From Actinomycetota bacterium (GTDB lineage Bacteria; Actinomycetota; Acidimicrobiia; Acidimicrobiales; CADCTF01), in contig JAHWJU010000001.1 in assembly GCA_019348255.1 (NCBI GenBank), positions 2,900 to 66,899 of the forward strand: DNA of 64,000 nucleotides, given 5' to 3'. Position 1 is the stretch's first letter, and the number at the start of each line of letters is the position of its first letter. Below the pieces are notes generated by a model. That model worked only from the letters and a program-made list of their open reading frames with translations. It had not been told where the DNA came from and did no database searches. This document shows positions 7,730-52,538 of the stretch, one piece after another. The position numbers and the translations under genes are program-made.

Positions 7730-7740
7730 GCCCCGACTGG

Positions 7741-9114: not shown

Positions 9115-9117
9115 GGG

Positions 9118-15745: not shown

Positions 15746-15746
15746 C

Positions 15747-26708: not shown

Positions 26709-26720
26709 GGCCGCGGATCC

Positions 26721-34796: not shown

Positions 34797-35687
34797 TCAC
34801 CAGCAATAGCCCGCCGCCTCCAGCAGGCCACCGGCGTGCCTCTCGAACAGCGCGGAGTCGTCCTCGGTGAAGTGGTTCCGCCGGTCTCCGACCTGCCGCT
34901 TGCCGAAGGGGCGACCTTCGCCCACCTGCTGGCTCGGCAGGTTGGAGAACGACGTGGCCTCCACGACGACCTTGACGAACGTCTCGGAGATGGGCAGGTC
35001 GACGAACCTGACGAGCCGCTTGACCTGCTCGTGCGGGCTCTGCACCAGGGCCTCGTAGCGCAGCACATGCCACCGTCCCGCCGCCAACGGCCGGTCTCGT
35101 ACGGCGGCGCCGTGTCGGACCGCCTGCACCCATCGCTCAATCTGGTCCATGCGGTCCGTGGGAGCGCATGACCCCAGCCTTGGCCCGGTGCTCGAGCGAG
35201 ACGCACAGGTCACGTCCGTCGCGGAGCACCTCGACGATGCGGGCTTCCGGCCAGCGGCGCAGGATGCGGCTGGCGAAGTAGCGATGCCTCGGCGTCGTCT
35301 CCACCAGGACGTGCTCGTACCCCCCGCCGCGCGAGCGGAAGAACCCGTCGAGGATGCTCTCCACCAGCCCCTCTGCCGCTGCGTCGGCGGCGAGACCTTC
35401 CTGCCCCGCCTCGTCCAGCAGCCGGTGCAGTTCCTCTCGGCTGACCCAGTGGTGCGGCCCGGCGTTGCCGCCGCCCAGACCACCCTGCTCGGCGTGTGCG
35501 TAGCGGGCGATGACCGCCGCCCGGCCGGCCGGCGTCAGCCCGTACTGGGCCAACGGCTGGAACAGGGTCGGAACACGTGGGACTCGGGTCCCGAGATCAC
35601 CTGCGGATGGCAGTCGAGGATGCGTCGCGTCCACGTGGTGCCCGACCGTCCGCATCCGACCACGAACACCTTCCGGCACTGCGTCAT
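34797..35687 (-). pseudogene. Sulfotransferase gene disrupted by two frameshifts
   Basis: The N-terminus 'MTQCRKVFVVGCGRSGTTWTRRILDCHPQVISGPESHVF' (PAPS P-loop) starts at ATG 35687. The middle part ('PTLFQPLAQYGL...YEHVLVETTPRHRYFASRILRRWPEARIVEVLRDGRDLCVSLEH') is in a second frame. The C-terminal part ('MDQIERWVQAV...WHVLRYEALVQSPHEQVKRLVRFVDLP...') is in a third frame. The shifts lie near 35580 and 35155. Confidence 0.7.
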
Positions 35688-35754: not shown

Positions 35755-36627
35755 TCAGGTCGCCTCCGAGCTCTGCCAGGTGTCGAGCTCCTCGTCCGAG
35801 ACGTATCCGGCCCTGACCAACATGGGCCCCGCCAGCTCCGCGAACTGCTTGCGGCGGCTCGGCCCCCATTCGCTCCAGTCGTCGGCAGGGCGGCGACCGT
35901 CGTGCTGGAAGCTCGAGTTGACCCGGTTGCCGCCGAACGCCTCGGCCGGTCCGCCATGAGGACGGAGCCCGAGGAAGGCCTGCAGGCGGTCGAAGCCTGC
36001 CTCCGGTTCGGCGGCGAGATCCTCGTTGCGCACGGTGAGGCACCGATCGGGAATGGCCTCCTCAAGCGCCAGGGCGGTGTCCACCCACTCGCTCCAGACG
36101 GCACATGCCTGCCCGAAGTCGTGTACCCACCCGGGCACCTCGTGGCTGAGCCGGGACCGCTGCCCCTCAGTGAAGACGCCCTCGAAGCTCCCCATCGATC
36201 GAACCACCGCTCGGCCGTCCCGCAGGATGTGCACGAACTGGGCGCCGGGGAGCATCACTGCCAGGTCTTGCGCCATGGCGGTGTAGAGCGGCGTCTGGTC
36301 CACCCAGCGGCGACCACCGCTACGGCTGCTGAAGATGGCGTTGACGGCGAGGCCCACGAAGGCGAGGAACTCGTCGCGCTCCACCGCCTCCTCGCGGATC
36401 CAGCTCGGGGTCGCCCGCTCCATGTTCCCCTTCCAGACACGGTCGAGGCGCCCGTTGCCGAACAGCTCGTGGACGAAGTACGACTCCTTCGAAGCCCACA
36501 GTTCGGGGTGCCCGCCGAGCGCCTTGGCCAAGGCGGTCGTCCCCGAACGGGGTGAGCCGATGACGAAGACGGGGTTCCGGCACAGCCTTTCCAGTCCGAG
36601 GTACGCCCGCAGGTGCTCCGTGGTCAC
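35755..36627 (-). CDS. Sulfotransferase (PAPS-dependent, Sulfotransfer_3-like)
   Basis: GTG 36627 forms a GTGA overlap with the upstream stop. The 5'-PSB loop is 'VFVIGSPRSGTTALAKALGGHPEL' and a 3'-PB-like block is 'RWVDQTPLYT...FVHILRDGRAVVRS'. Confidence 0.8.
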   Translation of the reverse strand: MTTEHLRAYLGLERLCRNPVFVIGSPRSGTTALAKALGGHPELWASKESYFVHELFGNGRLDRVWKGNMERATPSWIREEAVERDEFLAFVGLAVNAIFSSRSGGRRWVDQTPLYTAMAQDLAVMLPGAQFVHILRDGRAVVRSMGSFEGVFTEGQRSRLSHEVPGWVHDFGQACAVWSEWVDTALALEEAIPDRCLTVRNEDLAAEPEAGFDRLQAFLGLRPHGGPAEAFGGNRVNSSFQHDGRRPADDWSEWGPSRRKQFAELAGPMLVRAGYVSDEELDTWQSSEAT

Positions 36628-39600
36628 GTGGTCACCACCTGGCTGGCGCGGACGTGGTACTCCACGATCTCGCGGTTGTAGTACGGGGGCGCTCGCAGCG
36701 GATCGACCCCGTGCTTCCACCCGTACAGGAACCGGTGCGCCTGCAGGAGCCAGTCCACGTGGGGGTCGTGGGCAGCGGTCGTCCTCCGGACGTGGCTGAC
36801 CCTCGCCGCCGGCACGGGCGTGAGCTCGACGCCTAGCTCCCAGGCCCGGTGCCAGTAGTCGGTGTCCTCACCGTAGGCGGGGCTGAACTGCTCGTCGAAG
36901 GGACCGACCTCCCGATAGGTGTCGAGCGTCAACATGAAGCACCATCCCGCCGTACCGCCCTGGTCGGGCTGGCGGAAGCCGAGGCCGTCCCCGTGGTCGG
37001 TGTAGGGGAAGGCGATGCGACGGCCAGTGGTCACCGCCTCGAGCAGCGCCTCGTCCCAGCCCGGCTCGACCAGGCAGTCGCTGTTCAGGACGGCTACCAC
37101 CGGAGCCCGGGCCGCTCGGATGCCGGTGTTCCACGCAACGGAGACGCCCCGGTTCTCCTCGAAGCGGTGCACGACGGCGGGGAACGACCGCTGGTGCGGT
37201 GAACCGTTGTCGACCACCAGCACCTCCGTGGGCACGCGGGCCACCTCCCGGACCCGCGCCACGGTGCGGACCGCCATGTCGGCGAGCTCCCGGGTGCGGC
37301 TCCACACCGGCAGCGTGACGGTCAGGGCGACGGTTCCGGACGAGGGTTCCTGCGTCCCGGTGGACCACTCGGTCACGGTCGGCCCCGCCGGGGCGGGTCG
37401 ATCCCTGCTCGGCGTCGGCGCGGGGGGCGGGTCCACGGCCCGGGCGGCGGTGGGGACGCCTCCGAGGGCCTCGGTGACGCCCTTGGCACTGCTGGCGAGG
37501 ATGAGGGCCCGGTAGGCACGGTGCAACCCCTCTCTGTCGGCGTCGGGTGAGCCGGCGACCACTGCCTCCTCCAGCTCCCGGGCCCGTGCTCGCATTGCGG
37601 GGAAGCCGGGGCGGGCCGCCTCCCACCGCTCGCGGGCCTGCTCGACCTGGGCGTAGCGCCGGAGCTCCTCGCCGTCGTGCAGCGTCGCCATGATCGCCTG
37701 GGCCCGCCCCTTGGCCTCCGTGCGCCGGCAGAACTCGTCGAGGCCGATGGAGCGGACCATGAAGGTGCGGGCCGCCGGGTGGTACACGACCCGGAGGCCC
37801 CGTGGCGCCAGGCGCCAGGCCATCTCGACGTCGATGGAGTAGTCCAGGCGCTGGTCGTGTAGGCCGTGCCGAGCGAGCAGGCTGCGCTTGCACGACACCC
37901 GCCCCTCCCAGAAGCCCCTCCAGTCGAGCTGCTGGCCCGCGCTGAGGTTGGCGTAGGAGAACAGGAAGCCGTCGACGTCGGTCACATAGTGCATGAGCGG
38001 CGTGACGACGATCTCGGGCGCCCAGCCGGTGTGGCCGAGCACGGCGACGCCTTCGTCGGGGTGGGCGTCGTGCGCCCGCAGGTGCTGTTCGAGCAGGTCC
38101 GGAGCCGGTCGGTCGTCGTCGTCGCAGAAGAGCACGATGTCGGCTCGGGCCAGGAGCGCGGCCAGGTTCTTGGCGGGGCTGCGGCCGGCGTGCTGGATGT
38201 GAGCCCACACCAGCGGCAAGTTCCCGAGTCGGGCCTCCAGGACGCCGGCCGTCGCCGTGCCCGGGGAGCCGTCGTCCACGACGACGACCTCGAACTCGGC
38301 GGCGTCGAGCGTCTGGGCGGCGAAGCCGTCGAGGCACCCGGCCAGGAGCTCGGGGCGGTCGTAGGTGCCCACCAGCACGCTGATCCGCGGGGTCCCGGTT
38401 GCGGGGCTGCGGCGGAGCGTCCGCCGCAGGTGGTCACCGTCCCGCACCACGACGTCGAGGACCCGACTGCAGCGCAGGGTGTCGTCGTCCGGCTCGAGGG
38501 TGGCGGCGAGACCGATGACCAACTCGTCGAGCAGCATGACCGGTCCCCGAGCTTCGGCACCGGCCCGCACCGCGAGGACCGGCAGGGAAGTCGGCCCGGC
38601 GACCTGGCGGGCAGCGCAGCCCCGCAGTCGCTCGGTCACCGGCGGGGCGGCCGCCGGCCCCGAGCGGTGCGCCGGTTGCACGCGCTCGGCGCCCAGCTCC
38701 GCAGCCGCGGCCACGAGCTGGTCGAGGAAGTTGCCGGGCAGAAGCGCCGAGTCCTCGAGCGCGACCACCCAATCCACGGCCGGAAGGTCCGGCTCGTTGC
38801 CGATCCGGTCGACCGGCGAGTTGCCGTCGGACGGACGCCACCGCTGGCTCACCCGGCAGCGACTGCTCTCGAGGGCTCGCAGCAGCGAGGGGGGCGGACC
38901 GGCCCGCCGACCGTCATAGGTGCCCAGGACCAGGACCTCGGGCCCCTCACCGTCCACCGCCTCGGCCGTAGTCGGTGACGTGCGTCCGTGGGGTGCCCGC
39001 AGGTCGAAGACGACGGCGTGCTGGTCGGCGTGGACCCGCCGCGCGGTCGAGTTGAGGAACGCATCGAAGGCGGGGTAGTGGTGAAGCCACCAGAAGGCGG
39101 TGCTGGGCAGCACGAGATGGGTCGCGCCCCGCTGTCGCAGCGTCTCCACCTGGTGGATGGCGGACTCGCTGTCGGCCGGGTGGAAGCCCGCCCATCCCCT
39201 GTCGGGACCGAGGGGGAAGTGCCATCCCGTCCGTCCGACCAGCCGGACGAGCTCGTCGTCACCCTTCGAGACGACGAGGACGACCGAGCCGGGCTCGGTG
39301 ACGCCGTCGACGGCCGTGTGCACGGCGGCGACCGTCTCCCGGTAGGCCTCCGCCCGCCGCCGCTCGTGCCGGAAGGCGTCCGGGGCGACGGCAGCCGGGC
39401 GGTGGAGCACGTGGTCGACGATGGCCAGGAACTGCTGGCGGACGCGGCTCATGTCGTGGCTCTCGCCTAGCAGCATCCAGCCGGCATCGGCCAGCCGGTT
39501 CCATGTCGCCTCGTCGACGAGGACCCGGGTGAGGGCGGCGGCGAGATCCTCCGGCGACTCCACCACGAGGGCGTGGGTGTCGTGCCGTACCGGAAGGCCC

Positions 39601-40493
39601 TCCATGGCGATCGGCGTGCCGACGACCGGGGTGCCGGCGAACAGCGACTGGACCACCTTGCCCTTGACCCCGGCGCCGTGGAGCAAGGGCACCACGCACA
39701 CCCGGGCGCGCTCCAGGTAGGGCACGATCGACGGGACCCAGCCGACCATGTGGACGTTGGGCAGGCCGCCGGCATGGGCCCGGACCCGGTCGTCGAGGCG
39801 GTTGCCGACGACCGTCAGGGGATGGGCGGTGAGAAGGGCGGGCTCGAGCCGGGGCAGGACGTCATGGCACAGGTACTCGATCGCCTCGCCGTTGGGCAGG
39901 TGCCGGAAGTTGCCGACGAAGAACATGCCGCGGCGCTCGCGGAACGGCAACGGTGACCGCTCGATCCGCTCGGCCAGCGGCAGCTCGAAGACCTTGCCGG
40001 GGCCGAGGAAGTCGGCGAGCAGGGCCGACTCCTTGGCGGAGACGGTCATGACCGCGTCCGCCTGCCGGTAGGTGTTGAGCTCGGCTGCCAGCAGCTTCCC
40101 GTACCCGTCATCGAGCGTACCGTCCACGCCGAAGCGCCTGCGGGCGTCGCGCAGGAAGTGCACGTCGATGGAGTCGATGAGGACGCGGGTGCTCGGCGAG
40201 TGCTCTCGAAGCAGCGGCAGCAGATGGGACGCCGGCTCCCAGAAGGCGAGGACGGCGAGGTCGAACGCGCCCGCCGCTAGGACCTGCTCGGCGACCTCGA
40301 AGCCGGCGAAGGTCGTCACCCCCCGCTGTCGGAGCCGGTTGGCATGCCGCTCGTCGGCGTTGGCCTCCTGGGCCAGGAAGGTGACCGCCCACCCCTCGTC
40401 GAGGAGGAACTCGATGAGGTCGTCCACCCTCTGGGATCCCCGGTCCCGGTCGGGCTCGGGTATCCGTGTCTGCGACACGATGGCTCGCTTCAC
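36624..40493 (-). CDS. Giant multidomain glycosyltransferase: GT-B (GT4-like) + conserved ~100-aa 'WHFP/WWL' module + two GT2 domains
   Basis: GTG 40493 forms a GTGA overlap with the upstream stop. The GT-B part has 'ARVCVVPLLHGAGVKGKVVQSLFAGTPVVGTPIAMEG'. The module lies at 38997..39299. GT2 domain 1 has 'RISVLVGTYDRPELLAGCLDGFAAQT...FEVVVVDDGS...LFCDDDD'. GT2 domain 2 has 'LTVTLPVWSRTRELADM...VLVVDNGS...AVLNSDCLV...YGEDTDYW'. Confidence 0.8.
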   Translation of the reverse strand: MKRAIVSQTRIPEPDRDRGSQRVDDLIEFLLDEGWAVTFLAQEANADERHANRLRQRGVTTFAGFEVAEQVLAAGAFDLAVLAFWEPASHLLPLLREHSPSTRVLIDSIDVHFLRDARRRFGVDGTLDDGYGKLLAAELNTYRQADAVMTVSAKESALLADFLGPGKVFELPLAERIERSPLPFRERRGMFFVGNFRHLPNGEAIEYLCHDVLPRLEPALLTAHPLTVVGNRLDDRVRAHAGGLPNVHMVGWVPSIVPYLERARVCVVPLLHGAGVKGKVVQSLFAGTPVVGTPIAMEGLPVRHDTHALVVESPEDLAAALTRVLVDEATWNRLADAGWMLLGESHDMSRVRQQFLAIVDHVLHRPAAVAPDAFRHERRRAEAYRETVAAVHTAVDGVTEPGSVVLVVSKGDDELVRLVGRTGWHFPLGPDRGWAGFHPADSESAIHQVETLRQRGATHLVLPSTAFWWLHHYPAFDAFLNSTARRVHADQHAVVFDLRAPHGRTSPTTAEAVDGEGPEVLVLGTYDGRRAGPPPSLLRALESSRCRVSQRWRPSDGNSPVDRIGNEPDLPAVDWVVALEDSALLPGNFLDQLVAAAAELGAERVQPAHRSGPAAAPPVTERLRGCAARQVAGPTSLPVLAVRAGAEARGPVMLLDELVIGLAATLEPDDDTLRCSRVLDVVVRDGDHLRRTLRRSPATGTPRISVLVGTYDRPELLAGCLDGFAAQTLDAAEFEVVVVDDGSPGTATAGVLEARLGNLPLVWAHIQHAGRSPAKNLAALLARADIVLFCDDDDRPAPDLLEQHLRAHDAHPDEGVAVLGHTGWAPEIVVTPLMHYVTDVDGFLFSYANLSAGQQLDWRGFWEGRVSCKRSLLARHGLHDQRLDYSIDVEMAWRLAPRGLRVVYHPAARTFMVRSIGLDEFCRRTEAKGRAQAIMATLHDGEELRRYAQVEQARERWEAARPGFPAMRARARELEEAVVAGSPDADREGLHRAYRALILASSAKGVTEALGGVPTAARAVDPPPAPTPSRDRPAPAGPTVTEWSTGTQEPSSGTVALTVTLPVWSRTRELADMAVRTVARVREVARVPTEVLVVDNGSPHQRSFPAVVHRFEENRGVSVAWNTGIRAARAPVVAVLNSDCLVEPGWDEALLEAVTTGRRIAFPYTDHGDGLGFRQPDQGGTAGWCFMLTLDTYREVGPFDEQFSPAYGEDTDYWHRAWELGVELTPVPAARVSHVRRTTAAHDPHVDWLLQAHRFLYGWKHGVDPLRAPPYYNREIVEYHVRASQVVTT

Positions 40494-42847
40494 CACGGCC
40501 ACCTGCCCGCCACGTCGTCGGTGAGCAGGAGGGCCGGCCAGGCGGCGTCGTCGAGCGGGTCGGGCCGGGGCGGGCGCCGCTGGAGGGATGGGCGCCACAC
40601 CTCCCCGACGGCGCCCGCCGGCGTGCCATCGGCGGCGCTGGCCGTCCGGACCGCAGCCGCTTCCGGCTGGTAGGCCACATGCCAGCGGCGAGCCCACAGG
40701 CTGCCGGCGAGGTCCACGAGGCCATCAGGGCCGGGGACGGGGGCATCGATCTCGTCCAGCGCGGTACGGCGGACGACGAGCATGCCGACCCCGGCGTCGG
40801 TGGGGCGGAGGCGCTCGTGCCAGGGCGAGCACGGGTCGACGGAGCCGGCGGCCACGCCGGCCCACGAACCGTCGCTGAACACGGTGACACCCGCGGCCAC
40901 GAGCCGGCCGTCGCGCTCGAAGAGCTTGGCCGCCACCGCTCCGAGGCCCTCGTCACGGGCGAGGGTTCGGCGGGCCGCGGCCAGAGCGCCCGGGAGCGGC
41001 ACGACCCCCTGGTCGAGAAAGGCCACCAACGGCGCCTGCATGGTGCCATCGACCTCGGGGCCCACGAGCCGGCCGACCGGCTCGGGGCCGAGCACCGCAC
41101 GGATGGCGTCGGCCGCGACCGGATCGGGACCGTCGCCCCTCAGGACCACGTCCACCGCGGCGTCACCCTGGGCGGCGTCGTCGTGCTCGGCGATCACCTC
41201 GGCGACCACACAATGCGAGTCGGCGGGGTCGAGCAGGACCACTGCTCCGGACGCGACTCTCCGGGCCTCCGCTACTCGATCCGGCCGGTCGATCACGACG
41301 ATGTCGACGGTGCGGTCCAGGTAGGGGAGGCTCGGGGCGTCGCCATGGGGCCGGAACACGTTGCGCCCTCCGAGGTGCTCGGCGAGCGCCCTCCCCGTCC
41401 AGTCGAGCACCGACGAGGAGGGGCCTGTGTCCCCCGTGAGGTGGTCGAGGGTGCCCGGCAGATCCGTAGGCCACCCGCTCGCGGCCGGTCGACGGGCGGC
41501 CAGATCGACGAGCAGACCGCTCCCGGGCTCGTCCGCCAGGACCCGGTAGCGGGCCAGGTGGGCCGCCACCTGCGGGTACCGGTCGAGCCACCACCGATAG
41601 GCCTCAGGCAGCAGCAGGATGCCGCTCCCCTCGGCCCGCAGTGCCTCGAGATGGGCCACGGCTGCGACTCCGTCGGCCGGCCAGAAGCCGGCGTACTTCC
41701 GGTCCGTCCCCTGGGGGAAGGTGGTGGCCGGCCGCCCGTAGAGGTCGAGCAGCTGCGGATCCCCCTTGCACACGACCAGTACCGGCACGCTCCGGGGGAC
41801 GTGGGCGCGTACCAGCTCGCGGGCGGCCGAGACCTCCGCCGGCACCGGTTGCCGCGCGGAGGACCATTCGTAGCGCACGGCTTGGAAGGAGTCCTCCAAG
41901 CGGTCGAGGCCTTCGGCCATCGCTGCCCAACCGGCACGAGGGGTCGAGTCACTCTCGAGCGCAGCGATCCTCTTCTCGAGCTCGTCCCGCTCGCGCTCCA
42001 ACGCCGCTATCCGGCGATCCCGCCGGTCGAGGTGCTGGCGGGCGAGCTCCAGGTCGAGGACCGCACGCTCGACCCGGCCGGCGTCGGCGTCGGTGTCCAC
42101 GGGGAACATCCCCTCGGGCGGCAGACCAGCCTCCGCGCAGAGGCGCCGGTACAGCTCCACCACGGCCGGTGATGCGCCCGCCGCCGCCAAGGTGACCTCG
42201 AGGTCGTGGTGACGCAGCCGCTCGTCGAAGGCGGAGACGGCGGAGTCGACGGCTGCCGGTTCCAGCCCGGCGAAGGAGAGCAGACGCCCGGCCGATCCAC
42301 CTCCGTCCTTGAACTGGGCGTGGTAATGGGTGACGAGCCGCTTCTCTGCCGGCACCGCGCCGAGGACGGCTTCGTAGTAGTCGTGCCACAGGCGCAGCGC
42401 CAGCGAGTACGAGATCCGGTTGCGCCGTTTCAGAGAGAGCGCCACCTCCAAGGGGTGACGCACGCAGACGACCACGAGCAGGTCGGGGACGAGGTCGAGC
42501 CAGAATCGGGCGGTCAGGCATGTGCGGGGGTCCTTCCACCCCCAGGGACCCTGGGCCGCGAGCCCGCCCAGGAGCTCGGCCGCGGGCTCGGCCAGGTGCG
42601 CCACCCGAGGGTCGTCGGCGGTCAGCGGAGGGCACGATGGCGGGTTGTCCCAGGCACCGCCGGTGGCCCCGAGAAGGTCCTCGTTGACCCGGACCAGCCC
42701 TTCGTGCTCGAAGAAGCCCTCCGGGTTGTCCGGCGCCGGACCCACCAGATCCCGTTCGTCGCCGAGGTGGAGGCCGGCGAGCATCAGGGCCTTGGCGATC
42801 ATGGACGTCCCCGTGCGGTGCATCCCCGTGATCGCGATCGCACTCAT
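40490..42847 (-). CDS. Sulfotransferase-like N-domain + coiled coil + 'WHFP/WWL'-type module + degenerate GT2-like C-domain
   Basis: ATG 42847 forms an ATGA overlap with the upstream stop. The P-loop is 'IAITGMHRTGTSMIAKAL', followed by 'WGWKDPRTCLTARFW'. A coiled coil 'LELARQHLDRRDRRIAALERERDELEKRIAALE' follows. The module lies at 41498..41800. The C-terminus has 'GVGMLVVRRTALDEI'. Confidence 0.7.
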   Translation of the reverse strand: MSAIAITGMHRTGTSMIAKALMLAGLHLGDERDLVGPAPDNPEGFFEHEGLVRVNEDLLGATGGAWDNPPSCPPLTADDPRVAHLAEPAAELLGGLAAQGPWGWKDPRTCLTARFWLDLVPDLLVVVCVRHPLEVALSLKRRNRISYSLALRLWHDYYEAVLGAVPAEKRLVTHYHAQFKDGGGSAGRLLSFAGLEPAAVDSAVSAFDERLRHHDLEVTLAAAGASPAVVELYRRLCAEAGLPPEGMFPVDTDADAGRVERAVLDLELARQHLDRRDRRIAALERERDELEKRIAALESDSTPRAGWAAMAEGLDRLEDSFQAVRYEWSSARQPVPAEVSAARELVRAHVPRSVPVLVVCKGDPQLLDLYGRPATTFPQGTDRKYAGFWPADGVAAVAHLEALRAEGSGILLLPEAYRWWLDRYPQVAAHLARYRVLADEPGSGLLVDLAARRPAASGWPTDLPGTLDHLTGDTGPSSSVLDWTGRALAEHLGGRNVFRPHGDAPSLPYLDRTVDIVVIDRPDRVAEARRVASGAVVLLDPADSHCVVAEVIAEHDDAAQGDAAVDVVLRGDGPDPVAADAIRAVLGPEPVGRLVGPEVDGTMQAPLVAFLDQGVVPLPGALAAARRTLARDEGLGAVAAKLFERDGRLVAAGVTVFSDGSWAGVAAGSVDPCSPWHERLRPTDAGVGMLVVRRTALDEIDAPVPGPDGLVDLAGSLWARRWHVAYQPEAAAVRTASAADGTPAGAVGEVWRPSLQRRPPRPDPLDDAAWPALLLTDDVAGRWPW

Positions 42848-44787: not shown

Positions 44788-46985
44788 CTGGGAGCCCTCG
44801 GCGTCTGCTCGTGGACCGGTCTTCCGCGCGGCAGGCCGTGGCCGTTCTTGGTCGCCGACTCCGCCTGGCCGATCAGGTGGGCGAGCACCGCCAAGACGTC
44901 GTCGGCCGACTGGCACGGGCCGCCTCCATCGCCCGGATGGGCTGGCTGCCCCCGCTCTGCGTGCTTGCCGTTGGAGATGTCGGGATTGCCATCCGCTCCG
45001 GACCCGGACCGGTTCCCGCAGGCCCGGTCACGCCCGCGGGGGAGCGGGGCGACGACCTCCTCGCTCGGGACGGGTGAGGGGGGTGGCTGGGCCTCGCCGG
45101 CGGGGAGCTCCCCTTGGCCGCTCTGTGCCGCCCACAGCTCGTGGTAGAGGCCTTCGGTGGCGACGAGCTCGTCGTGGGTGCCCCGCTGCACGAGCTCGCC
45201 GTGGTGGAGCACCAGGATCTGATCGGCACGCCGGACGGTGGACAGTCGGTGGGCGATCATCAGCGTGGTCCGGCCCTCCATGAGGCGCTCCAGTGCTTGG
45301 AGCACCACCCCCTCGGTGCGAGAGTCGATGGAGGACGTGGGCTCGTCGAGGATGAGAACCGGTGCGTCCCGGAGGAAGGCCCGGGCGACAGAGATGCGTT
45401 GGCGCTCGCCGCCGGAGATCTTCGCTCCCCGCTCACCGAGCTGGGTCTGGTACCGCCGCGGCAGTGCCCTGATGAAGTCATGGGCGTTCGCCGCCTTGGC
45501 TGCCCGGCGCACCTCCTCATTAGTGGCATCGGGCCTCCCGTAGCGGATGTTGTCGGCAATGCTCCCGGAGAACAGCAGCGGCTCCTGCAGCACCACGCTG
45601 AACTGCGCTCGCAGCGACTCCAGCGTGACGTCGCGCACGTCGATCCCGTCGAGGAGGATGCGACCTGCCTCGACGTCGTAGAAGCGGGGGAGCAGGCTGG
45701 CCAGTGTCGACTTGCCCGCCCCGGTCGGTCCCACGACGGCGACGACGCTGCCGGCCGGCACGCGGAACGTGAGGTCCTTCAGCGTCTCGGGACGTTGGGC
45801 GTAGCTGAACCGAACGTCCTCGAAGGCGATCTCGCCATTCGCCCGCTCGATGGCGACGGCGTCTTCCTTCTCCGTGACCCCGGGGGCCTCGTCGAGGAGC
45901 GAGAGGGCGTGCTCGAACATGATGAACTGCTGCTGCGCACCGGTCACGAAGTTCGTCATCTGCTCGAGCGGCTGGTACACCGACGCGATGTAGGACATCA
46001 CGACGAGGAGCTGACCCGGGCTCAGGCGACCCTGCAGTACTCCACGGGCCCCGACACCCAGGACGGCGGCGGTTCCGCAGGCGGTGATGAAGCTCACGGC
46101 CAACCGGAACAGTGTCTGGCGCACGGTGAGGCTCACCCGCGCACCGATGGCCCTCTCCCCCTGGCTGCGGAAGCGCTCGAATTCGTGCCGCTCCCGACCG
46201 AAGGCGACGACGACGCGCAGCATCGCCATCGCCTCGTGGACGATGGACAGGTTGGCGCCTTCCAGGCCGCGGACCCTGCGCAGCTGTGGCTCCACGCGGT
46301 TGGCGTAGTAGATCGTCGAGTAGTACATGAAGGGCAGCACCAGGAGGGCCAACGCCGCGAGGTGGGGGTCGATGCGTAACACGACCCATGCCATGCCGAG
46401 CACGGTCAGCAGGCTCTGGACGAGCGTCGGGATCGACACCACCAGCTGACCCAGCGCGCCCGCCTGGTTGTTCAGCCGGTACATGAGGTCTCCGGTGCGC
46501 TGGTCGTCGTGAAACGTGAGCGAGAGCCGCTGCACGTGCTGGAAGAGGTCACTGCGGAAGTCGAGGCCCATCTTCTGGTCGACGGTGGTGGTGAGGTACT
46601 GGTTCACCACCGTGAGCCCGCCGGTCACCAGGGTGATGAGCAGCGCCGCCCCCACCGCCAGGAGGATGAGGGGCCCGGCCTCTTCACCGATCAACCCCGA
46701 CACCCAGGAAGGAGCCGGTCGGTCGCCGAGGACAGTGTCGATGACGAAGGCGAGCGGCCACGGTTCGGCGAGGGCTGCCGCCGCGAGGAGGCCGGTGACC
46801 GCGATCGAGCTGACCGAGTGCCGCTTGTAGGGGCGGAGGTACGGCAGGGCCCGGGGCAGCAGGGCGAAGCCCCGTCTGAGGGCGTTGGCGCGAGGTCCAC
46901 GCGTCTCGCCCCGAACGTCCCCGTCCGCCTCGTCGTGGAGGTGGCCCTCCTCCGATGGCTGGTCCTCTGCCGCCGTGTCGGTCAC
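44784..46985 (-). CDS. ABC exporter, fused TMD-NBD half-transporter (MsbA/PglK/NdvA-like), with a ~100-aa C-terminal tail
   Basis: GTG 46985 forms a GTGA overlap with the upstream stop. The TMD has six hydrophobic segments. NBD motifs are Walker A 'GPTGAGKST', signature 'ISGGERQRISVAR', Walker B 'VLILDEPTS' and H-loop 'MIAHRL'. The tail after 'LYHELWAAQSG' is unusual. The 5' extension of track ORF 44784..47975 is antisense-shadow-like and is not counted. Confidence 0.85.
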   Translation of the reverse strand: MTDTAAEDQPSEEGHLHDEADGDVRGETRGPRANALRRGFALLPRALPYLRPYKRHSVSSIAVTGLLAAAALAEPWPLAFVIDTVLGDRPAPSWVSGLIGEEAGPLILLAVGAALLITLVTGGLTVVNQYLTTTVDQKMGLDFRSDLFQHVQRLSLTFHDDQRTGDLMYRLNNQAGALGQLVVSIPTLVQSLLTVLGMAWVVLRIDPHLAALALLVLPFMYYSTIYYANRVEPQLRRVRGLEGANLSIVHEAMAMLRVVVAFGRERHEFERFRSQGERAIGARVSLTVRQTLFRLAVSFITACGTAAVLGVGARGVLQGRLSPGQLLVVMSYIASVYQPLEQMTNFVTGAQQQFIMFEHALSLLDEAPGVTEKEDAVAIERANGEIAFEDVRFSYAQRPETLKDLTFRVPAGSVVAVVGPTGAGKSTLASLLPRFYDVEAGRILLDGIDVRDVTLESLRAQFSVVLQEPLLFSGSIADNIRYGRPDATNEEVRRAAKAANAHDFIRALPRRYQTQLGERGAKISGGERQRISVARAFLRDAPVLILDEPTSSIDSRTEGVVLQALERLMEGRTTLMIAHRLSTVRRADQILVLHHGELVQRGTHDELVATEGLYHELWAAQSGQGELPAGEAQPPPSPVPSEEVVAPLPRGRDRACGNRSGSGADGNPDISNGKHAERGQPAHPGDGGGPCQSADDVLAVLAHLIGQAESATKNGHGLPRGRPVHEQTPRAPR

Positions 46986-49645
46986 GCCTTCACCGGCGGT
47001 CGCTGGACCGCTCGCTCGAGGATCCGACGAGGCCGCCAGGCGCTCCGACACAGCGCGGCGGCGACGGCCACGGTGACGACCGCGGCCGCCAGGGCGTTCA
47101 CGGCGAACACCGAGGCGGTGGTCAACGCCGTGAGCGCCAGGCGGGCCCACCGGGGTCGGGTCCGGACGCGGACCTGCACGAAGCCCACGGGATGGCTGCT
47201 GGTCTGCAGGTCGGCGAAGAGGAAGGTCGACACGAGCCGGGCGTCGTGGTCCTCCCAGCCGATCGCCGGGAGGAGTCGCAACCCCTTCCGCCGGAGCTCC
47301 TCGACCAGCGTGGACGCAAGGGCTTCCCGAGACCCATCCTCCTTCAGCACGTGTACGCCGCCGGCGGCGGTCCTCACCGCCCGGGGGAGCGGGGCGACCG
47401 TAGGCAACCCGCGGTGGGCCGCACCGGCCCCGCGCCACCGACCCCAGGTCCGAACGCACGGCTGCAGAAGGTGGTGGGCTGCCACCGACGACCTGAACCG
47501 CGCCCGGGCGAGTTCCGACCCCCGGGGCGGGTGGGCCCGCACCATGTCGATGGCGACGATGCTCAGCAGGTACAGAGCAGCCAGCAGTGCGGGCAGAGCG
47601 AGCTGGACGGCGACGGCGGCGAGCGGTGCGGTGGCGAGCAGAGCCGTGGCGGCGGGCACGCCGGCCTGGTGGGCGACGTCGAGCGCGTAGCCACCTTGCT
47701 GGTACACGGACTGGTACGCGGCGGTGCCGAACTGTCCCCGGTAGACGCGTTGGCCCCAGCGGGCCTGCGGCAACGAGGTGTAGATGCGACCCCGCCACCG
47801 GGCGGTGCCGAGTGGCCCGAAGCGATCCGGGTGGCGGGCCTCCACGAGCGCCTCGGCCCTGCCGTAGCCCCGCTGCTGGCGCAGGTAGGGACGCAGCCCG
47901 GAACGGCGGTGGTGCCACACGAGAGCTGCGGGGTGGAAGCCGATCTCCCATCCCCGGTCGAGCACCTTCCAGCACAGGTCGACGTCGTCACCTGCCGACG
48001 TGTAGACGGGATCGAAGCCGCCCACCTCGATCAGCACCTTCTTCCAGAAGGCCATGTTGCAGCCGGGTACGTGCTCGGCCCGGTCGTCGGCCGTCAGGAC
48101 ATGGACGGGCCCGCCGGGAGCCTGGGCCACGACGTGGGCGCCGATGGGGTCCTCGGGGGGCGGGACGTTGGGCCCGCCCACGCTTCCGATGGAGCTCCCG
48201 TCGAGGGCGAGCGCCAGATAGTACGGCCACTCGGGGCTGGGGTACGCGTCACTGTCGAGGTAGGCGATCAGCTCGCCGGTCGCCTGGCGGAACCCCTCGT
48301 TGCGAGCCACCGAGAGCCCGGCGTGCGGCAGCTCGACCAGTCGGGCCCGCGGATGGCGTCGGACGATGGCGGCGGTGTCGTCGGTCGAGCCGTCGTCGAC
48401 CACGAGGATCTCGAGGTGGGGGTAGTGGAGGTCGCAGGTGTGTCGCAGGCACTCGTCGAGGGTGGTTGCTGCGTTGTACGCACAGATCACCACCGAGATC
48501 GACGGCCACGGCCAGTCCAGGTCACGGACGGTGCAGCGGTTCCATCGGGCGGCCACGTCGAGTGCCGGCTTCGGCGACCGGTCAGCCCGGACCAGACCGA
48601 AGTTCCAGCCGTCGACCTCCGAGCCGCCGACCCACCACTCGTCGGTCCACGAGAACACGCACGTCCCGGCCACGCCCCGGTCGAGCGCCGTCTGCAGCTG
48701 CCAGTCCAGCACCGCTGCCTGGTGCACCTCACCCTCGGGCGAGCGACCGGCGTCAAGCCCGACCTCGCCCAGCACCAGCGGCCGGTCACCAGCCAGGTGC
48801 TGCAGCCGGGTGAGGTAGCGCCGGAATTCGGCTCGCTGCTCGAGGAACACGTTGAAGGTCAGAAAGTCGAGGCACTCGAGTGGTAGATACTCCGCGGTCG
48901 GATAGTTGGCGTAGGTGACGAGGTGGTCGCCGTCCTCCTCCTTCACGGTCTCCACGAGATCGGCGATGGCGGCCGAGATGGTCCGCGTGCCGTACCACCG
49001 GACCACGTCGGCGGGGACCTCGTTGCCCAGGTTGATCGCCAGCACGCGCTCGTCGCCGGCGAGCCGGCGAGCCGCGGCGCGGACCTCGGCCCGACCCTGA
49101 CGCGCCGTGCGCGCCGCCTCCCTCCGGGAGGCGCCGAGCAGGTAGCGCCAGTCCTCCCAATGGACGGCGGCGAGGACGTGCAGGCCCCAGTCGGCGGCCA
49201 GGTCCAGCAGGTCGTCGGGCGGCTCGGTGTAGGTGCGGACCACGGTGAACCCCACCTCCCCCATGGCGGCGAAGTCCCGCTTCATCTGTTGGCGCTCGGG
49301 GAAGCGTGCGCCGTCGGAGGCACGAGGCGCGAAGGTTCCGTAGGTGACGCCGCGGAACTCGAACCGGCGCCCGTTCTCCTTGAAGAACTTCCCGTCGACC
49401 TCGATCCTGCCCAAGGGTCCGTCTCCAGAGATCCCGCCCTGCACGCCCACGAAGGCGTCCCCGCTGGGGGCCCGGGGCAGCGACACCCCAACCACCGAAC
49501 CGGCCCAGCCCGGTACGGATCCGCCGGAGCTGAGGATTTTCCACGGCGTCACCTGTTCCGCTGCCGGTCGCCGGGCTTGCAGGCCGGAGAGGACCCCGTT
49601 CAGGCCGGGAAGCGGAAGGCCCAAGGGGTGCCGAGCCGGTCTCAA
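46982..49645 (-). CDS. Bifunctional membrane protein: N-terminal clan GH-A TIM-barrel (GH17/GH5-like) + GT2 synthase-like domain + C-terminal TM region
   Basis: The GH part has 'FEFRGVTYGTF', 'VLAINLGNEVPADV' (acid/base-like NE) and 'PLVLGEVGLDAG'. The GT2 part has 'ISVVICAYNAATTLDECL...ILVVDDGSTDDT...YLDSDAYP...GCNMAFWKKV...GDDVDLCWK...RQQRGYG'. Hydrophobic helices follow. The start is uncertain: TTG 49645 (TTGA overlap with the upstream stop) or GTG 49552. Confidence 0.75.
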   Translation of the reverse strand: MRPARHPLGLPLPGLNGVLSGLQARRPAAEQVTPWKILSSGGSVPGWAGSVVGVSLPRAPSGDAFVGVQGGISGDGPLGRIEVDGKFFKENGRRFEFRGVTYGTFAPRASDGARFPERQQMKRDFAAMGEVGFTVVRTYTEPPDDLLDLAADWGLHVLAAVHWEDWRYLLGASRREAARTARQGRAEVRAAARRLAGDERVLAINLGNEVPADVVRWYGTRTISAAIADLVETVKEEDGDHLVTYANYPTAEYLPLECLDFLTFNVFLEQRAEFRRYLTRLQHLAGDRPLVLGEVGLDAGRSPEGEVHQAAVLDWQLQTALDRGVAGTCVFSWTDEWWVGGSEVDGWNFGLVRADRSPKPALDVAARWNRCTVRDLDWPWPSISVVICAYNAATTLDECLRHTCDLHYPHLEILVVDDGSTDDTAAIVRRHPRARLVELPHAGLSVARNEGFRQATGELIAYLDSDAYPSPEWPYYLALALDGSSIGSVGGPNVPPPEDPIGAHVVAQAPGGPVHVLTADDRAEHVPGCNMAFWKKVLIEVGGFDPVYTSAGDDVDLCWKVLDRGWEIGFHPAALVWHHRRSGLRPYLRQQRGYGRAEALVEARHPDRFGPLGTARWRGRIYTSLPQARWGQRVYRGQFGTAAYQSVYQQGGYALDVAHQAGVPAATALLATAPLAAVAVQLALPALLAALYLLSIVAIDMVRAHPPRGSELARARFRSSVAAHHLLQPCVRTWGRWRGAGAAHRGLPTVAPLPRAVRTAAGGVHVLKEDGSREALASTLVEELRRKGLRLLPAIGWEDHDARLVSTFLFADLQTSSHPVGFVQVRVRTRPRWARLALTALTTASVFAVNALAAAVVTVAVAAALCRSAWRPRRILERAVQRPPVKA

Positions 49646-50247
49646 CCTGGACCGCGACTGGGGATGGCTCTGGCGGTTCTCGCCATGGTCCGGACGTCTC
49701 CCCACGCCGTCCGGTCCGCCAGCCAGGCGATGTCCATGCGAAGCTTGTCGGGCAGCACCTCCTCCCTGTAACAGCGCTCGAGGTCGGCTGCCGCGGCAAG
49801 GATCTGCTCCTCGTGCCGGTACCGGATGGACGCCGGGCTGGTCAGGCCGGGCCGGACCTCGAGCACCCTGCGCTCCCTGCGGTCGTAGCCGGCCACGTAC
49901 TTCGGGTCCTCCGGACGAGGGCCGACCAGCGCCATCTCGCCACGGTTGACGTTGAGCAGTTGGGGAACCTCGTCCAGCTTGGTCTTCCGCAGGAACCGGC
50001 CGATCGAGGTGACGCGATCATCGCCGGAGACGGTCACGGCGGGGCCGCTGGTGCCGGTCCGCATGGTCCGGAACTTCAGGAGTTGGAACTCCTGCCCGTG
50101 CCGCCCCACGCGGACGCTCCGGTGCAGGACCGGGCCGGGCGACGACGCCCGTACGGCCACGGCGACCAGGACCCAGAGCGGTGCGCCCAGGACCAGGACG
50201 GCACGGGCCACGGTGATGTCGACCCACCGGGGAAGACCCGGCTTCAC
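49642..50247 (-). CDS. Small monotopic phosphoglycosyl transferase (PglC/WbaP-C-terminal type bacterial sugar transferase)
   Basis: GTG 50247 forms a GTGA overlap with the upstream stop. 'PVLHRSVRVGRHGQEFQLLKFRTM...LDEVPQLLNVNRGEMALVGPRPE' follows a single N-terminal hydrophobic helix. Confidence 0.85.
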   Translation of the reverse strand: MKPGLPRWVDITVARAVLVLGAPLWVLVAVAVRASSPGPVLHRSVRVGRHGQEFQLLKFRTMRTGTSGPAVTVSGDDRVTSIGRFLRKTKLDEVPQLLNVNRGEMALVGPRPEDPKYVAGYDRRERRVLEVRPGLTSPASIRYRHEEQILAAAADLERCYREEVLPDKLRMDIAWLADRTAWGDVRTMARTARAIPSRGPG

Positions 50248-51443
50248 GGTGCGTGACGCAGCACCGCCAAGGCGAGCGCGTCGCACACCCGATCCACCTG
50301 GTCATCGGTGAGGTCGGGGTACAACGGCAGGCTCAGCGCTCGCTGTGCCAGGCGATCGGCCGTACCGACACCGGTCGGGCCCAACACGAAGTGCTTGTCC
50401 ATGCCCCGGAAGAGGTGCAGCGGCTGGAAATGGACGCTCGTCGAGATGCCAGCCCTGTGGAGCTCGGCGACGACGCGGGGGCGTGAGGTGCCGGGAGGCA
50501 GGAGCACGACCATCAAGTGGTCCGCCGAACCCGGGTCGGCGTGCGGCGGAACCACGCTGATACCCCGAACCTGCGCCAGGTTGTGGCGATAGCGGCCCAC
50601 CAACCTGCGGCGCCGTGCCTGCAGCTGGGAGAAGCGACGGAGCTGGCTGCGTGCCAGCGCGGCCAGGATGTCGGGGAAGTTGGCCTTGATGCCGGCGCTG
50701 TTCACGTCGTAGAGGAAGCCGTCGCCGGGCAGGTAGCGCTTCCATGCGTCACGCGACATCCCGTGGAGGCGGAAGGTCCGGGCGAAGTCGGCGAGGTCAC
50801 CGTTCTCGGTGGTGATGGCACCGCCTTCGCCACTGGTCAGGTTCTTGGTGGCGTAGAAGCTGAAGCAGGCCGCGACCGACCGACGTCCGTTGACCAGGCC
50901 GTTGCCATCCGAGGCCCCCAGGGCATGAGCAGCGTCCTCGACGAGCGGGACGGCGCGGTCCGCGCACAAGAGGTGGACGTCCTCCCGGACCGCCGAGCCA
51001 CCGAAGTGGACGCCCACCACCGCATCGAGGCCCTGGTCGAGCGCCGCGTCCAGCGACACGGGGCTGAGGTTGAGCGTGTGTTCCTCGATGTCGATGAGCA
51101 CGGGTTGGTAGCCGGCGTGGACGGCCGACAGCGCAGTCGACACGAACGTCCAATCGGGTACGCCCACGCGCGATCCGGCAGGCAGGCCCAGGTAGTGGAG
51201 GCAGATCTCCAGCGCGTGCGTGCACGAGGCGACGGCGACCGCGTGCTGCACCCCGAGGTAGTCGGCCAGCTCCCGCTCGAACTCCAGGGATTGGCCCCCC
51301 GTGGTCAGCCAGCGGGAGCGAAGAGTGGCGGTAACCGCTTCGATGTCGTCTTCTTCGATCGAGGGGAGGGAGAAGGGGACGTCCCCCGCATGGGTTCGAA
51401 CGCCCGTCGACCTGCCGGAGGGCGACACCGTCGTATCGGTCAT
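50244..51443 (-). CDS. DegT/DnrJ/EryC1/StrS-family PLP-dependent sugar aminotransferase
   Basis: 'SLPSIEEDDIEAVTATLRSRWLTTGGQSLEFERELADYLG' and 'CFSFYATKNLTSGEGGAITT' (PLP-Lys region) are present. It is the first gene of the long minus-strand operon. Confidence 0.85.
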   Translation of the reverse strand: MTDTTVSPSGRSTGVRTHAGDVPFSLPSIEEDDIEAVTATLRSRWLTTGGQSLEFERELADYLGVQHAVAVASCTHALEICLHYLGLPAGSRVGVPDWTFVSTALSAVHAGYQPVLIDIEEHTLNLSPVSLDAALDQGLDAVVGVHFGGSAVREDVHLLCADRAVPLVEDAAHALGASDGNGLVNGRRSVAACFSFYATKNLTSGEGGAITTENGDLADFARTFRLHGMSRDAWKRYLPGDGFLYDVNSAGIKANFPDILAALARSQLRRFSQLQARRRRLVGRYRHNLAQVRGISVVPPHADPGSADHLMVVLLPPGTSRPRVVAELHRAGISTSVHFQPLHLFRGMDKHFVLGPTGVGTADRLAQRALSLPLYPDLTDDQVDRVCDALALAVLRHAP

Positions 51444-51971: not shown

Positions 51972-52538
51972 TCAGGAGGAGGCGGCCTGCCCGTCCCTGG
52001 AGAGCTTTCTGTTCCGGCGGGTGCGCACGCTGAATACCGTGCCGGCGCCTACCAGCAGCAGAGCCAAGCCGGCCTGGAGGAGGGGCAGGGAGTCGGATCC
52101 GGTGCGGGCCAGTGCGCCACCCCCCTTGCCGGCGCCGCCCGTGCCGCCGCCGCCGGCGCGGGCGACGCGGTCCGTGCTTCCGCTGCCGGAGTTGCGGCCG
52201 GCAGCGGCTCCCTTGCCGGCAGCGGTTTCGCCGGCTTCGGGCGCCAGCACGGTGATGGGCAGGCGCAGGACCAGGGTGCCGGGCCCGTCGATGTCCTTGC
52301 CGGTCACCGTGATGGTGTGCTGGCCGGGCGCGATGTCGGTCGGGATGGTGACCGTGGCCGTGAACACGCCGGTTGGGTCCGCGGTGGCCGTACCGAGCCG
52401 GCGGGGCGTCGATTGGATGTCGATGACCACCCCTCCGGCGAAGCAGCACCCGGAGATGGTGACCTCCTGGCCGGGGACGACGGTGAGGTCGTCGACGGCG
52501 AGGAAGTCACCCTGGTCGTAGCCCTGCGCCTGAGCCAT
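51972..52538 (-). CDS. LAxTG-anchored Ig-like surface protein, apparently lacking a signal peptide (possibly 5'-truncated)
   Basis: 'VVPGQEVTISG..F.GG..IDIQSTPRRLGTATADPTGVFTATVTIPTDIAPGQHTITVTG' is an Ig-like adhesin repeat. The C-terminus has 'LARTG', the hydrophobic 'LLQAGLALLLVGAGTVF' and the basic 'RTRRNRK'. An in-frame stop at 52581..52583 leaves no room for an N-terminal signal. Confidence 0.55.
   Translation of the reverse strand: MAQAQGYDQGDFLAVDDLTVVPGQEVTISGCCFAGGVVIDIQSTPRRLGTATADPTGVFTATVTIPTDIAPGQHTITVTGKDIDGPGTLVLRLPITVLAPEAGETAAGKGAAAGRNSGSGSTDRVARAGGGGTGGAGKGGGALARTGSDSLPLLQAGLALLLVGAGTVFSVRTRRNRKLSRDGQAASS

Follow-up and report, generated by a model that had tools for sequence, protein, structure and literature searches.

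A candidate operon for cytoplasmic assembly and sulfation of a lipid-linked glycan in an uncultured acidimicrobial actinobacterium

The locus described here is an operon of eight same-strand genes (g1–g8) covering positions 35755–51443 on the minus strand of a 64,000-nt stretch of DNA from an Actinomycetota bacterium of the order Acidimicrobiales (assembly GCA_019348255.1, contig JAHWJU010000001.1; hereafter the window, in whose positions all reading frames are given). Two kinds of described system lie close to it. In ATP-binding cassette (ABC) transporter-dependent assembly of O-antigens and S-layer glycans, known from Escherichia coli O9a (WbdA/WbdD), Klebsiella (WbbB) and Geobacillus (WsaE), multidomain glycosyltransferases are found together with coiled-coil terminators. 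To our knowledge, hardly any bacterial genes for sulfated glycans have been identified apart from those of cyanobacteria and a few rhizobia; the cyanobacterial xss system is Wzx/Wzy-dependent and has stand-alone sulfotransferases. It is the system for the sulfated exopolysaccharide (EPS) synechan in Synechocystis PCC 6803 (PMC8205485), and a second sulfotransferase-bearing EPS cluster, wps-1 of Actinoplanes missouriensis, was predicted in 2026, is chemically unverified, and is described as likewise Wzx/Wzy-dependent with stand-alone sulfotransferases (PMC13390465). Sulfated glycoconjugates are reported to be common in granular-sludge and environmental EPS, and the genes responsible are said to be unknown (PMC10483923). 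Given these last two reports, the original prediction for this locus, that sulfated glycans are rare in bacteria and undescribed for such an organism, was worded too strongly.

Judged by analogy, the nearest pathway logic appears to be that of ABC transporter-dependent glycan assembly, the type of exporter excepted. The operon combines lipid-carrier initiation with predicted cytoplasmic multidomain glycosyltransferases and contains no Wzx/Wzy genes, homologues of which are present only in a separate locus at 3–16 kb of the window. As proposed for this locus, the WbdA/WbdD, WbbB and WsaE systems build a lipid-carrier glycan in the cytoplasm with large multidomain glycosyltransferases, and they resemble it further in having a modifying enzyme fused to an extended coiled coil, in lacking Wzx/Wzy and in relying on ABC export. 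The modification domain here, in g6, is a sulfotransferase, whereas proteins of the WbdD/WbbB type carry a kinase, methyltransferase or Kdo-transferase; the exporter g4 is a fused MsbA-type half-transporter, whereas the known systems use Wzm/Wzt with a carbohydrate-binding module. A PglC-type phosphoglycosyltransferase would initiate synthesis, and a membrane protein joining a glycoside hydrolase (GH) domain to a GT2 domain is present, which further sets the operon apart from the O9a, WbbB and WsaE systems. With xss and wps-1 it shares the combination of glycosyltransferases with sulfotransferases of the type that uses 3'-phosphoadenosine-5'-phosphosulfate (PAPS); wps-1 is from the same phylum and also has a glycoside hydrolase and a kinase-like gene. 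Unlike both, the operon has no Wzx/Wzy, has an ABC half-transporter, and encodes one protein in which a sulfotransferase is joined with a coiled coil and a GT-A-like domain.

We propose, with moderate confidence, that the locus encodes a cytoplasmic assembly line for a polyprenyl-phosphate-linked glycan that is sulfated before export. On the basis of domain content, g1 and a sugar epimerase/dehydratase encoded beside the operon (gV) would make an amino sugar nucleotide, and g2 would transfer a sugar-1-phosphate to the lipid carrier at the inner membrane face. Chain extension would fall to g5 and g7, soluble multidomain enzymes with four or more glycosyltransferase domains, and to the membrane-anchored GT2 domain of g3. 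The sulfotransferase domains of g6 and g8 would add sulfate from PAPS, g4 would export the completed glycan, either free or lipid-linked, and an extracytoplasmic enzyme (gF) would trim or release it. Proteins g5–g8 have no transmembrane (TM) segment, save a borderline hydrophobic stretch in g6 (aa 111–129) that lies inside the folded sulfotransferase domain, and are therefore taken as cytoplasmic; since PAPS is a cytoplasmic metabolite, sulfation should precede export. Support for the assembly line comes from domain identities, folds and catalytic motifs, from the conserved coupling geometry of g6, g7 and g8, and from synteny over many uncultured lineages, the operon being partly conserved in numerous bacteria of soil and water. 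The sequence observations in the original prediction are largely right, while its functional reading is plausible but over-unified; sequences and models point to an uncharacterised variant of the cytoplasmic lipid-linked glycan pathway.

Sulfation would be carried out by two proteins. The first, g6 (785 aa; 40490–42847), comprises a sulfotransferase domain, a coiled coil, a module shared with g5 and g7, a small α/β domain and a GT-A-like domain, and appears in the NCBI record as 'hypothetical protein KY454_00180'. All of its relatives are from uncultured organisms and are labelled 'sulfotransferase' or 'hypothetical'. The family was aligned twice (alignments A1 and A2), with invariance counted over 77 orthologues and 24 aligned members rescanned against Pfam; each of the 24 matches Sulfotransfer_3 (best E 8e-16). 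The P-loop reads GMHRTGTS and the 3'-phosphate-binding (3'-PB) motif VRHPLEVALS, and both R130 and S138, as well as a candidate catalytic Glu, are invariant across the 77 orthologues. PDB sequence searches with the family gave only spurious matches (designed TIM barrels and coiled coils). In an AlphaFold2 (AF2) model of g6 (pLDDT 89.6), the sulfotransferase fold is followed by two long helices (aa 261–332), after which come two small α/β units, the module and then a second domain, ahead of the GT-A fold. Foldseek matches the sulfotransferase domain to Stf1 (2zq5, the best match), TPST2, the CurM sulfotransferase and SULT2, with E-values of 1e-5 to 3e-4, and the C-terminal GT-A fold to GalNAc-T2 and GlfT2.

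The second protein, g8 (290 aa; 35755–36627), is a stand-alone PAPS-type sulfotransferase (Sulfotransfer_3 7.9e-30, 105 bits against a cut-off of 27; Sulfotransfer_1 9e-8). It aligns to tyrosylprotein sulfotransferases (TPSTs) at 5.8e-8 with the 5'-phosphosulfate-binding (5'-PSB), base and 3'-PB positions retained, its motifs GSPRSGTT and RDGRAVVRS falling on the TPST motifs GxPRSGTT and RDGRAVVxS. A third sulfotransferase gene, at 34797–35687 on the same strand, is disrupted, either as a pseudogene or through an assembly error. It has an in-frame stop; one frame holds the N-terminal P-loop GCGRSGTT as well as the C-terminal part, a second frame holds the middle, both open reading frames (ORFs) match sulfotransferase families, and reading through requires two frameshifts, in line with the decayed copy that had been reported here. 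The three motifs originally noted, GSPRSGTT, GMHRTGTS and GCGRSGTT, are all present. The assignment of the P-loop proteins as sulfotransferase-like also holds, for g8 through its Pfam match and TPST alignment and for g6 through the 24 family matches, the invariant P-loop and R...S motif, and the AlphaFold match to Stf1, TPST2 and the CurM sulfotransferase.

Genes for two large glycosyltransferases lie on either side of g6. The three-part g5 (647 aa; 42844–44787) has a CgeB-like half domain at its N-terminus, a GT2 domain (aa 260–478) and the shared module (aa 507–629). In the 1289-aa multidomain glycosyltransferase g7 (36624–40493), a GT-B/GT4-like domain (Glyco_trans_1_4, aa 190–326) precedes the module (aa 372–498) and two GT2 domains identified with Pfam (aa 702–913 and approximately 1050–1260). 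Matches to Pfam and NCBIfam hidden Markov models agree with the domain content first given for the operon. The module, of about 115 residues, is encoded at 42892–43230 in g5, 41492–41830 in g6 (aa 319–440) and 38970–39311 in g7. Its copies are 41–46% identical by local BLASTP, and 33–43% identical to the g6 copy in a three-way alignment with 30 invariant positions; its motif is VLVVsKGD..LL.l.Gr...FP...d..yAG.hPaD...AI..LE.LR..Ga..Lv.P....WWL..Y..f..hL. The module has no Pfam or PDB relative, a PDB sequence search returning spurious matches only. By profile search the module is present in 3905 cluster representatives at E ≤ 1e-3, and in 2382 at E ≤ 1e-10; it frequently forms arrays of 2–6 tandem copies, which stand alone or are joined to GT1, GT2, methyltransferase or sulfotransferase domains. 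That three successive, translationally coupled proteins carry it points to a possible role in docking or in binding a common acceptor, and it probably holds g5, g6 and g7 in one complex or on one acceptor.

With its coiled coil of variable length, g6 is a candidate organiser of these enzymes. Between the sulfotransferase domain and the module, the 77 orthologues have a linker of 112–392 residues that is bimodal in length, and several orthologues match coiled-coil families. This architecture, a modifying enzyme with a variable coiled coil and a partner-binding region, together with coupling to the main glycosyltransferase, resembles the chain terminators WbdD and WbbB. By analogy, g6-type proteins might form a new class of proteins that organise chain length while a glycan is assembled in the cytoplasm: the sulfotransferase would cap or pattern the lipid-linked chain, the coiled coil would act as a ruler and the module would dock g5 and g7. 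We regard this more specific idea as tentative and, as it stands, rather unlikely; a literature search joining sulfotransferase, coiled coil and chain length found no such paper. If it is correct, the sulfated glycoconjugates of soil, sludge and mat EPS would have a genetic source in the conserved set of fusion protein, giant glycosyltransferase and second sulfotransferase. In Acidimicrobiia orthologues of g6 the coiled coil of the linker is followed by a basic stretch rich in Arg, Lys and Pro. It is 100–250 residues long, also rich in Ala, and contains repeated 'RRLPxPA' units (for example in P0049 and P0089); it is absent from g6 of the window, and it could be a membrane- or polyanion-binding region.

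The membrane-anchored component g3 (834 aa; 46982–49486) joins a clan GH-A TIM barrel, a GT2 domain, two or three TM helices and a small C-terminal α/β domain. Pfam matches are to GH2_C (28 bits, cut-off 21) and GT2, and an AF2 model (pLDDT 81.6, pTM 0.81) places the GH-A barrel first, then the GT2 domain, the small α/β domain and a final TM helix. According to Foldseek, the barrel is nearest to GH2 β-glucuronidases/galacturonidases, GH157 and GH5_18 (E about 2e-12 to GH2 glucuronidases and GH157), and the GT2-membrane part is nearest to PcManGT (6yv7), which has a 'minimal cellulose-synthase-like' fold; BcsA superposes poorly, with a root mean square deviation of about 27 Å. Invariant across 50 homologues are N155-E156 (GNE) and E241 in the GH domain, and DSD, GDDVD and the interface-helix motif QQRxY in the GT2 domain. 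The earlier call of a clan A glycoside hydrolase fused to a GT2 domain is therefore borne out by fold and invariant catalytic residues, and from motif context we infer that the Asn-Glu pair, the candidate acid/base, sits on strand 4 and the second Glu, the candidate nucleophile, on strand 7. The GH and GT2 domains have no TM helix between them, which predicts a cytoplasmic location for both.

The earlier description of g3 as a membrane synthase is right as regards a membrane GT2 and wrong if a classical multi-TM processive synthase is meant, as it has only two or three TM helices and resembles the minimal PcManGT fold. With PcManGT, BcsA, PgaC and HAS, g3 shares the D, DxD and (E/D)D motifs of the GT2 domain, an interface helix with QQRxY resembling QxxRW, and C-terminal TM helices; it differs from processive GT2 synthases in its number of TM helices, in the replacement of Trp by an invariant Tyr, and in its N-terminal cytoplasmic GH-A barrel. 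A classical processive synthase of the BcsA/PgaC/HAS kind was considered and rejected because g3 has too few TM helices (two or three against six or more); it scores 78 bits against the PgaC equivalog cut-off of 422, and QxxRW is replaced by QQRxY. The g3 family, 63–69% identical across Acidimicrobiia, Nitriliruptoria and Thermoleophilia, is a highly conserved cytoplasmic GH-A/GT2 fusion that is paired with an ABC exporter and has no characterised member. Similar GH-GT2 fusions are found in many other phyla.

Initiation would fall to the first two genes. The product of g1 (399 aa; 50244–51443) is a pyridoxal phosphate-dependent sugar aminotransferase of the DegT/DnrJ/EryC1 family (PF01041, 1e-94), whose best NCBIfam matches are PseC-like and ArnB-like and all fall under the equivalog cut-offs; an identical protein is present in NCBI from a metagenome-assembled genome (MAG) of the Actinomycetota. 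The small monotopic phosphoglycosyltransferase g2 (201 aa; 49642–50247; Bac_transf 4.5e-49) is PglC-like, with a single N-terminal hydrophobic helix (aa 13–31). Its residues 5–145 align to the PglC structure 8g1n (E 8e-19), and LDEVPQL, GPRP and the DE dyad are retained. The exporter g4 (733 aa; 44784–46985) fuses TM and nucleotide-binding domains (ABC_membrane and ABC_tran) in the MsbA/PglK manner, and its low-complexity N- and C-terminal tails add no extra folded domain. MsbA-related, cyanophycin-associated, glucan and HlyB-type NCBIfam models score equally well on it, none at equivalog level: the PglK equivalog gives 146 bits against a cut-off of 1000, and two glucan-exporter models give 411 against 733 and 292 against 585. 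No two-component Wzm/Wzt (ABC-2) exporter is encoded in the operon. The NCBIfam equivalog models were run on all eight operon proteins and none reached its cut-off, so that no specific product name can be assigned. A link to NdvA and cyclic β-glucan was rejected because no GT84 or GH94 domain is present, and the glucan-exporter models score no better on g4 than the MsbA models do. The original prediction had seen three separate logics in the operon, which counted the ABC exporter twice: g4 is a single generic half-transporter of the MsbA type.

The combination of a PglC-like phosphoglycosyltransferase, a DegT aminotransferase and a fused ABC half-transporter of flippase type is that of the Campylobacter jejuni Pgl system (PglC, PglE and PglK), and raises the possibility of a product other than a polymer. 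This would be a sulfated glycolipid or short lipid-linked oligosaccharide, flipped by g4 and then moved to a protein (S-layer, pilin or sortase-anchored) or kept as a sulfoglycolipid. Such a product would be in keeping with the best structural match of the g6 sulfotransferase domain, which is to the mycobacterial protein Stf1, and with the neighbours of the operon, a cluster for type IV pili and a gene for a putative LAxTG surface protein. Neither a PglD-type acetyltransferase nor an oligosaccharyltransferase is found among the scanned genes of the operon and its neighbours, however; the sole Wzy_C-type protein lies 25 kb off in the Wzx/Wzy locus, and the PglK model falls far below its cut-off on g4. 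The same absences and score count against the Pgl analogy of the original prediction. The Campylobacter system further differs in having PglB and its own set of glycosyltransferases, where the operon has more and larger glycosyltransferases, plus sulfotransferases. A polymer accords better with the six or more glycosyltransferase domains, the coiled-coil protein and the gene for an extracellular glycanase-like enzyme, and we consider a non-polymer product quite unlikely.

Gene order in other genomes supports the proposed assembly line and shows that the operon is a concatenation of separately conserved modules, g1–g2, g3–g4 and g5–g8, since g3–g4 occur elsewhere without sulfotransferases and g6–g7(–g8) without g3–g4. 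The order g3-g4-[CgeB-like glycosyltransferase]-g5-g6-g7, followed by a convergent BNR_4 gene, is found in two Acidimicrobiaceae MAGs (L007 and L008), and g4-[CgeB-like glycosyltransferase]-g5-g6-g7 in a Jatrophihabitans MAG (L009), on an 11-kb contig that ends on both sides of the block. The g6-g7-g8 block recurs across many Acidimicrobiia: orthologues of g7 (47–59% identical) lie directly downstream of g6 orthologues with the 4-nt overlap kept, and orthologues of g8 (53–56% identical) come after them. Relatives of the g6/g7 module, the sulfotransferase fusion with the giant glycosyltransferase, are all from MAGs, and looser arrangements of sulfotransferase, GT2, glycosyltransferase and sulfotransferase genes occur in MAGs of Verrucomicrobiota, Acidobacteriota, Nitrospirota and Chloroflexota. 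Among 53 g6-type loci with enough flanking sequence, a g7-like glycosyltransferase is present in 40 (directly downstream of the g6 homologue in 32) and a second sulfotransferase in 14. In Nitriliruptor alkaliphilus (L086, 10001–14736), a g3 orthologue is followed by an ABC exporter, a CgeB-like glycosyltransferase, an acetyltransferase and a GT2 gene; the locus adjoins genes for MBOAT, GtrA and SLH-domain wall enzymes and lacks a sulfotransferase. Homologue, synteny and literature searches found no characterised homologous cluster, the existence of which the original prediction had named as a refutation; literature searches on sulfotransferases with Acidimicrobiia and on sulfated actinobacterial wall polymers returned nothing relevant, and one for PDB code 9FZ9 gave no match.

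The claim that one machine is encoded, made by stoichiometric co-expression, does not survive this synteny: g3–g4 stand alone in Nitriliruptor, g6–g7(–g8) lack g3–g4 in most loci, g1–g2 are conserved with neither module, and a gap of 155 nt precedes g3. The same observations could be taken further, to mean that two or three independent systems happen to be adjacent, with g3–g4 (and the CgeB-like glycosyltransferases) making a widespread non-sulfated envelope polymer, g5–g8 making or decorating another glycan, and g1–g2 being a local addition. The conservation of g3 across three classes, its sulfotransferase-free setting by SLH-domain wall proteins in N. alkaliphilus, the gap ahead of g3, and the scarcity of g4-like ABC genes (in five) and of g3-like genes (in seven) among the 53 g6-type loci all speak for such independence. 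Set against this, in the present genome, in the two Acidimicrobiaceae MAGs and in the Jatrophihabitans MAG the modules adjoin one another on one strand with their order unchanged, and the g3/g4 and g4/g5 junctions here are 4-nt overlaps. The N-terminal domain of g5 is moreover related to the CgeB-like glycosyltransferases that accompany g3–g4, a kinship that links the modules. Separate adjacent systems therefore seem unlikely to us, though worth keeping in mind.

Several points weigh against a single assembly line with sulfation. The exporter is not of the Wzm/Wzt type usual in ABC-dependent polymer export and no carbohydrate-binding module is present, g1–g2 are not conserved with g3–g4 or g5–g8, and the standard scheme has no place for the predicted cytoplasmic clan GH-A domain of g3, whose catalytic glutamates are intact. 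In g6, the DxD and the usual catalytic Asp of the GT-A-like domain are not conserved (alignment A1), so that this domain may be non-catalytic, and the Sulfotransfer_3 match scores 26.5 bits, just below the Pfam gathering cut-off of 27. One of the three sulfotransferase genes is broken, and no cysC- or cysDN-type gene for PAPS supply is seen within the window. The low g6 score and the decayed copy would also suit sulfotransferase-like domains that do not sulfate the glycan, being inactive scaffolds, binding PAP(S) or another nucleotide for regulation, or acting on a non-glycan substrate; Sulfotransfer_3 substrates are indeed very diverse and include tyrosine and polyketides. An unsulfated glycan is nonetheless improbable in our view, given that the P-loop, the R...S motif and the candidate catalytic Glu are invariant over the g6 orthologues, that g8 keeps the positions equivalent to those of TPST, and that many phyla show translational coupling between sulfotransferase and glycosyltransferase genes.

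On the proposed reading of a sulfated, lipid-linked glycan made in the cytoplasm, the locus offers a concrete, conserved candidate gene set for sulfated glycans in abundant uncultured lineages, namely Acidimicrobiia and their relatives; several soil phyla have it in a looser form. Three of its families have no characterised member: the sulfotransferase/coiled-coil/GT-A protein, the ~115-aa module and the GH-A/GT2 fusion.

We compared the gene junctions with the NCBI gene models of contig JAHWKE010000001.1 (assembly GCA_019348055.1; L001), which the window matches, and with those of L087, a 99%-identical contig from another sample annotated with an independent gene caller. All seven stops are TGA at the positions first reported, each with an ATG, GTG or TTG one base upstream in the frame of the downstream gene. 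Of the seven 4-nt overlaps originally described, six stand, through independent calls on L087, conservation in related loci, or both, and the TTGA at g2/g3 does not. The L087 calls show the same overlaps at g1/g2 (50244–50247), g3/g4 (46982–46985), g4/g5 (44784–44787), g5/g6 (42844–42847) and g6/g7 (40490–40493). In related loci the overlap is kept at g6/g7 in eight, at g7/g8 (36624–36627) in four and at g5/g6 in one, with protein similarity beginning at residues 1–4 of the ORFs first reported. That seven of seven frames would be compatible with overlap by chance appears unlikely, at one in three per junction for frame alone; conservation of the overlaps across loci is the stronger argument. 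As the original prediction had cautioned, such overlaps are common in the window, with others at 32294–32297 and 33427–33430.

In g4, the 80 codons that follow GTG 46985 include none of ATG, GTG and TTG. The g8 P-loop lies upstream of the next candidate start, so that GTG 36627 or an earlier codon must serve, and a Shine-Dalgarno-like AAGGGAG stands 8 nt ahead of the g6 ATG at 42847. For g3, TTG 49645 (TTGA, 49642–49645) was rejected: similarity to relatives starts about 77 residues downstream of it, and the GC content at third codon positions (GC3) of the stretch after it is only 0.74–0.77. Two gene callers, whose models were compared, place the g3 start at 49486 (834 aa), and family lengths are 800–865 aa; g3 most likely starts at GTG 49486, which leaves the 155-nt gap after g2. 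The NCBI record starts g2 at ATC 50217, g4 at CTG 46862 (both non-canonical) and g7 at GTG 40478, so that the annotations diverge at three more junctions. For g2 and g4, canonical GTG starts overlapping the upstream stops exist and are the ones that another gene caller uses, and the g2 start at GTG 50247 is used by three independent calls. The window has a GC content of 72%, and GC3 is 0.79–0.91 across all eight frames, which supports their coding status. A promoter and terminator scan of 34.5–53 kb was uninformative because of this GC content, with no promoters and one terminator-like site, inside g7 and below shuffled expectation. An Rfam scan of the window gave no matches. ARAGORN called a 90-nt tRNA-Thr(GGU) at 50013–50102 on the plus strand, antisense within g2, which we rejected as a probable false positive because it lacks an Rfam match at gathering score and lies inside a coding region.

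The operon is enclosed in a larger glycan island of about 28 kb (25.5–53.8 kb). Convergent on its end is gF (33427–34743, plus strand), a BNR_4/GH145-like β-propeller protein (PF15892, 1.4e-52) with an N-terminal hydrophobic segment, which matches a BT3686-type α-L-rhamnosidase model at 1.5e-39, under the cut-off. A BNR_4 gene occupies the same convergent place after the g7 orthologue in the two Acidimicrobiaceae MAGs (L007, 16945–17706; L008, 16762–17871), and gF is a candidate for processing the product outside the cell. Upstream of the operon and divergent from it, gV (52903–53841, plus strand) encodes an NAD-dependent sugar epimerase/dehydratase of the short-chain dehydrogenase/reductase type (PF01370, 3.3e-56); TviC, RmlB and GalE models from NCBIfam all score under their cut-offs, and gV is a candidate partner of g1 for amino sugar synthesis. 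The paralogous genes gD and gE (31020–33430, plus strand), joined by an ATGA overlap, encode putative CgeB-like (Glyco_trans_1_2) glycosyltransferases with weak PF13524 matches. They are 46% identical to each other and each is 40–44% identical to the N-terminal half of gC; the N-terminus of g5 resembles the C-terminal half of gC, gD and gE. Relatives of gD/gE lie between the ABC gene and the g5 orthologue in L007–L009, and after the ABC gene in Nitriliruptor.

Further out on the minus strand are gA, a GT2 gene (within 25491–30910), gB, for an alkaline phosphatase-superfamily phosphodiesterase (26721–28754), and gC (28604–30910), with a CgeB-like domain and a C-terminal APH kinase-like domain, all assigned from Pfam matches. 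From their proximity, gA, gB and gC may act in the same pathway as the operon. The APH kinase-like domain of gC and the neighbouring phosphodiesterase gB hint at a phosphate-based glycan modification as well.

Just upstream of the operon, at 51972–52538 on the minus strand, a 188-aa protein has LARTG, a hydrophobic helix and basic residues at its C-terminal end. This terminus resembles an actinobacterial LAxTG sortase-sorting signal; the protein has weak Ig-like matches and no clear signal peptide from the called start. Type IV pilus genes follow at about 54–63 kb. The separate Wzx/Wzy-type polysaccharide locus (about 3000–15750) encodes a 513-aa phosphoglycosyltransferase with CoA_binding_3, a DUF4012 protein, GT4 glycosyltransferases, an APH-like protein, a Wzc-like P-loop protein, Wzy_C and a Polysacc_synt_3 flippase.

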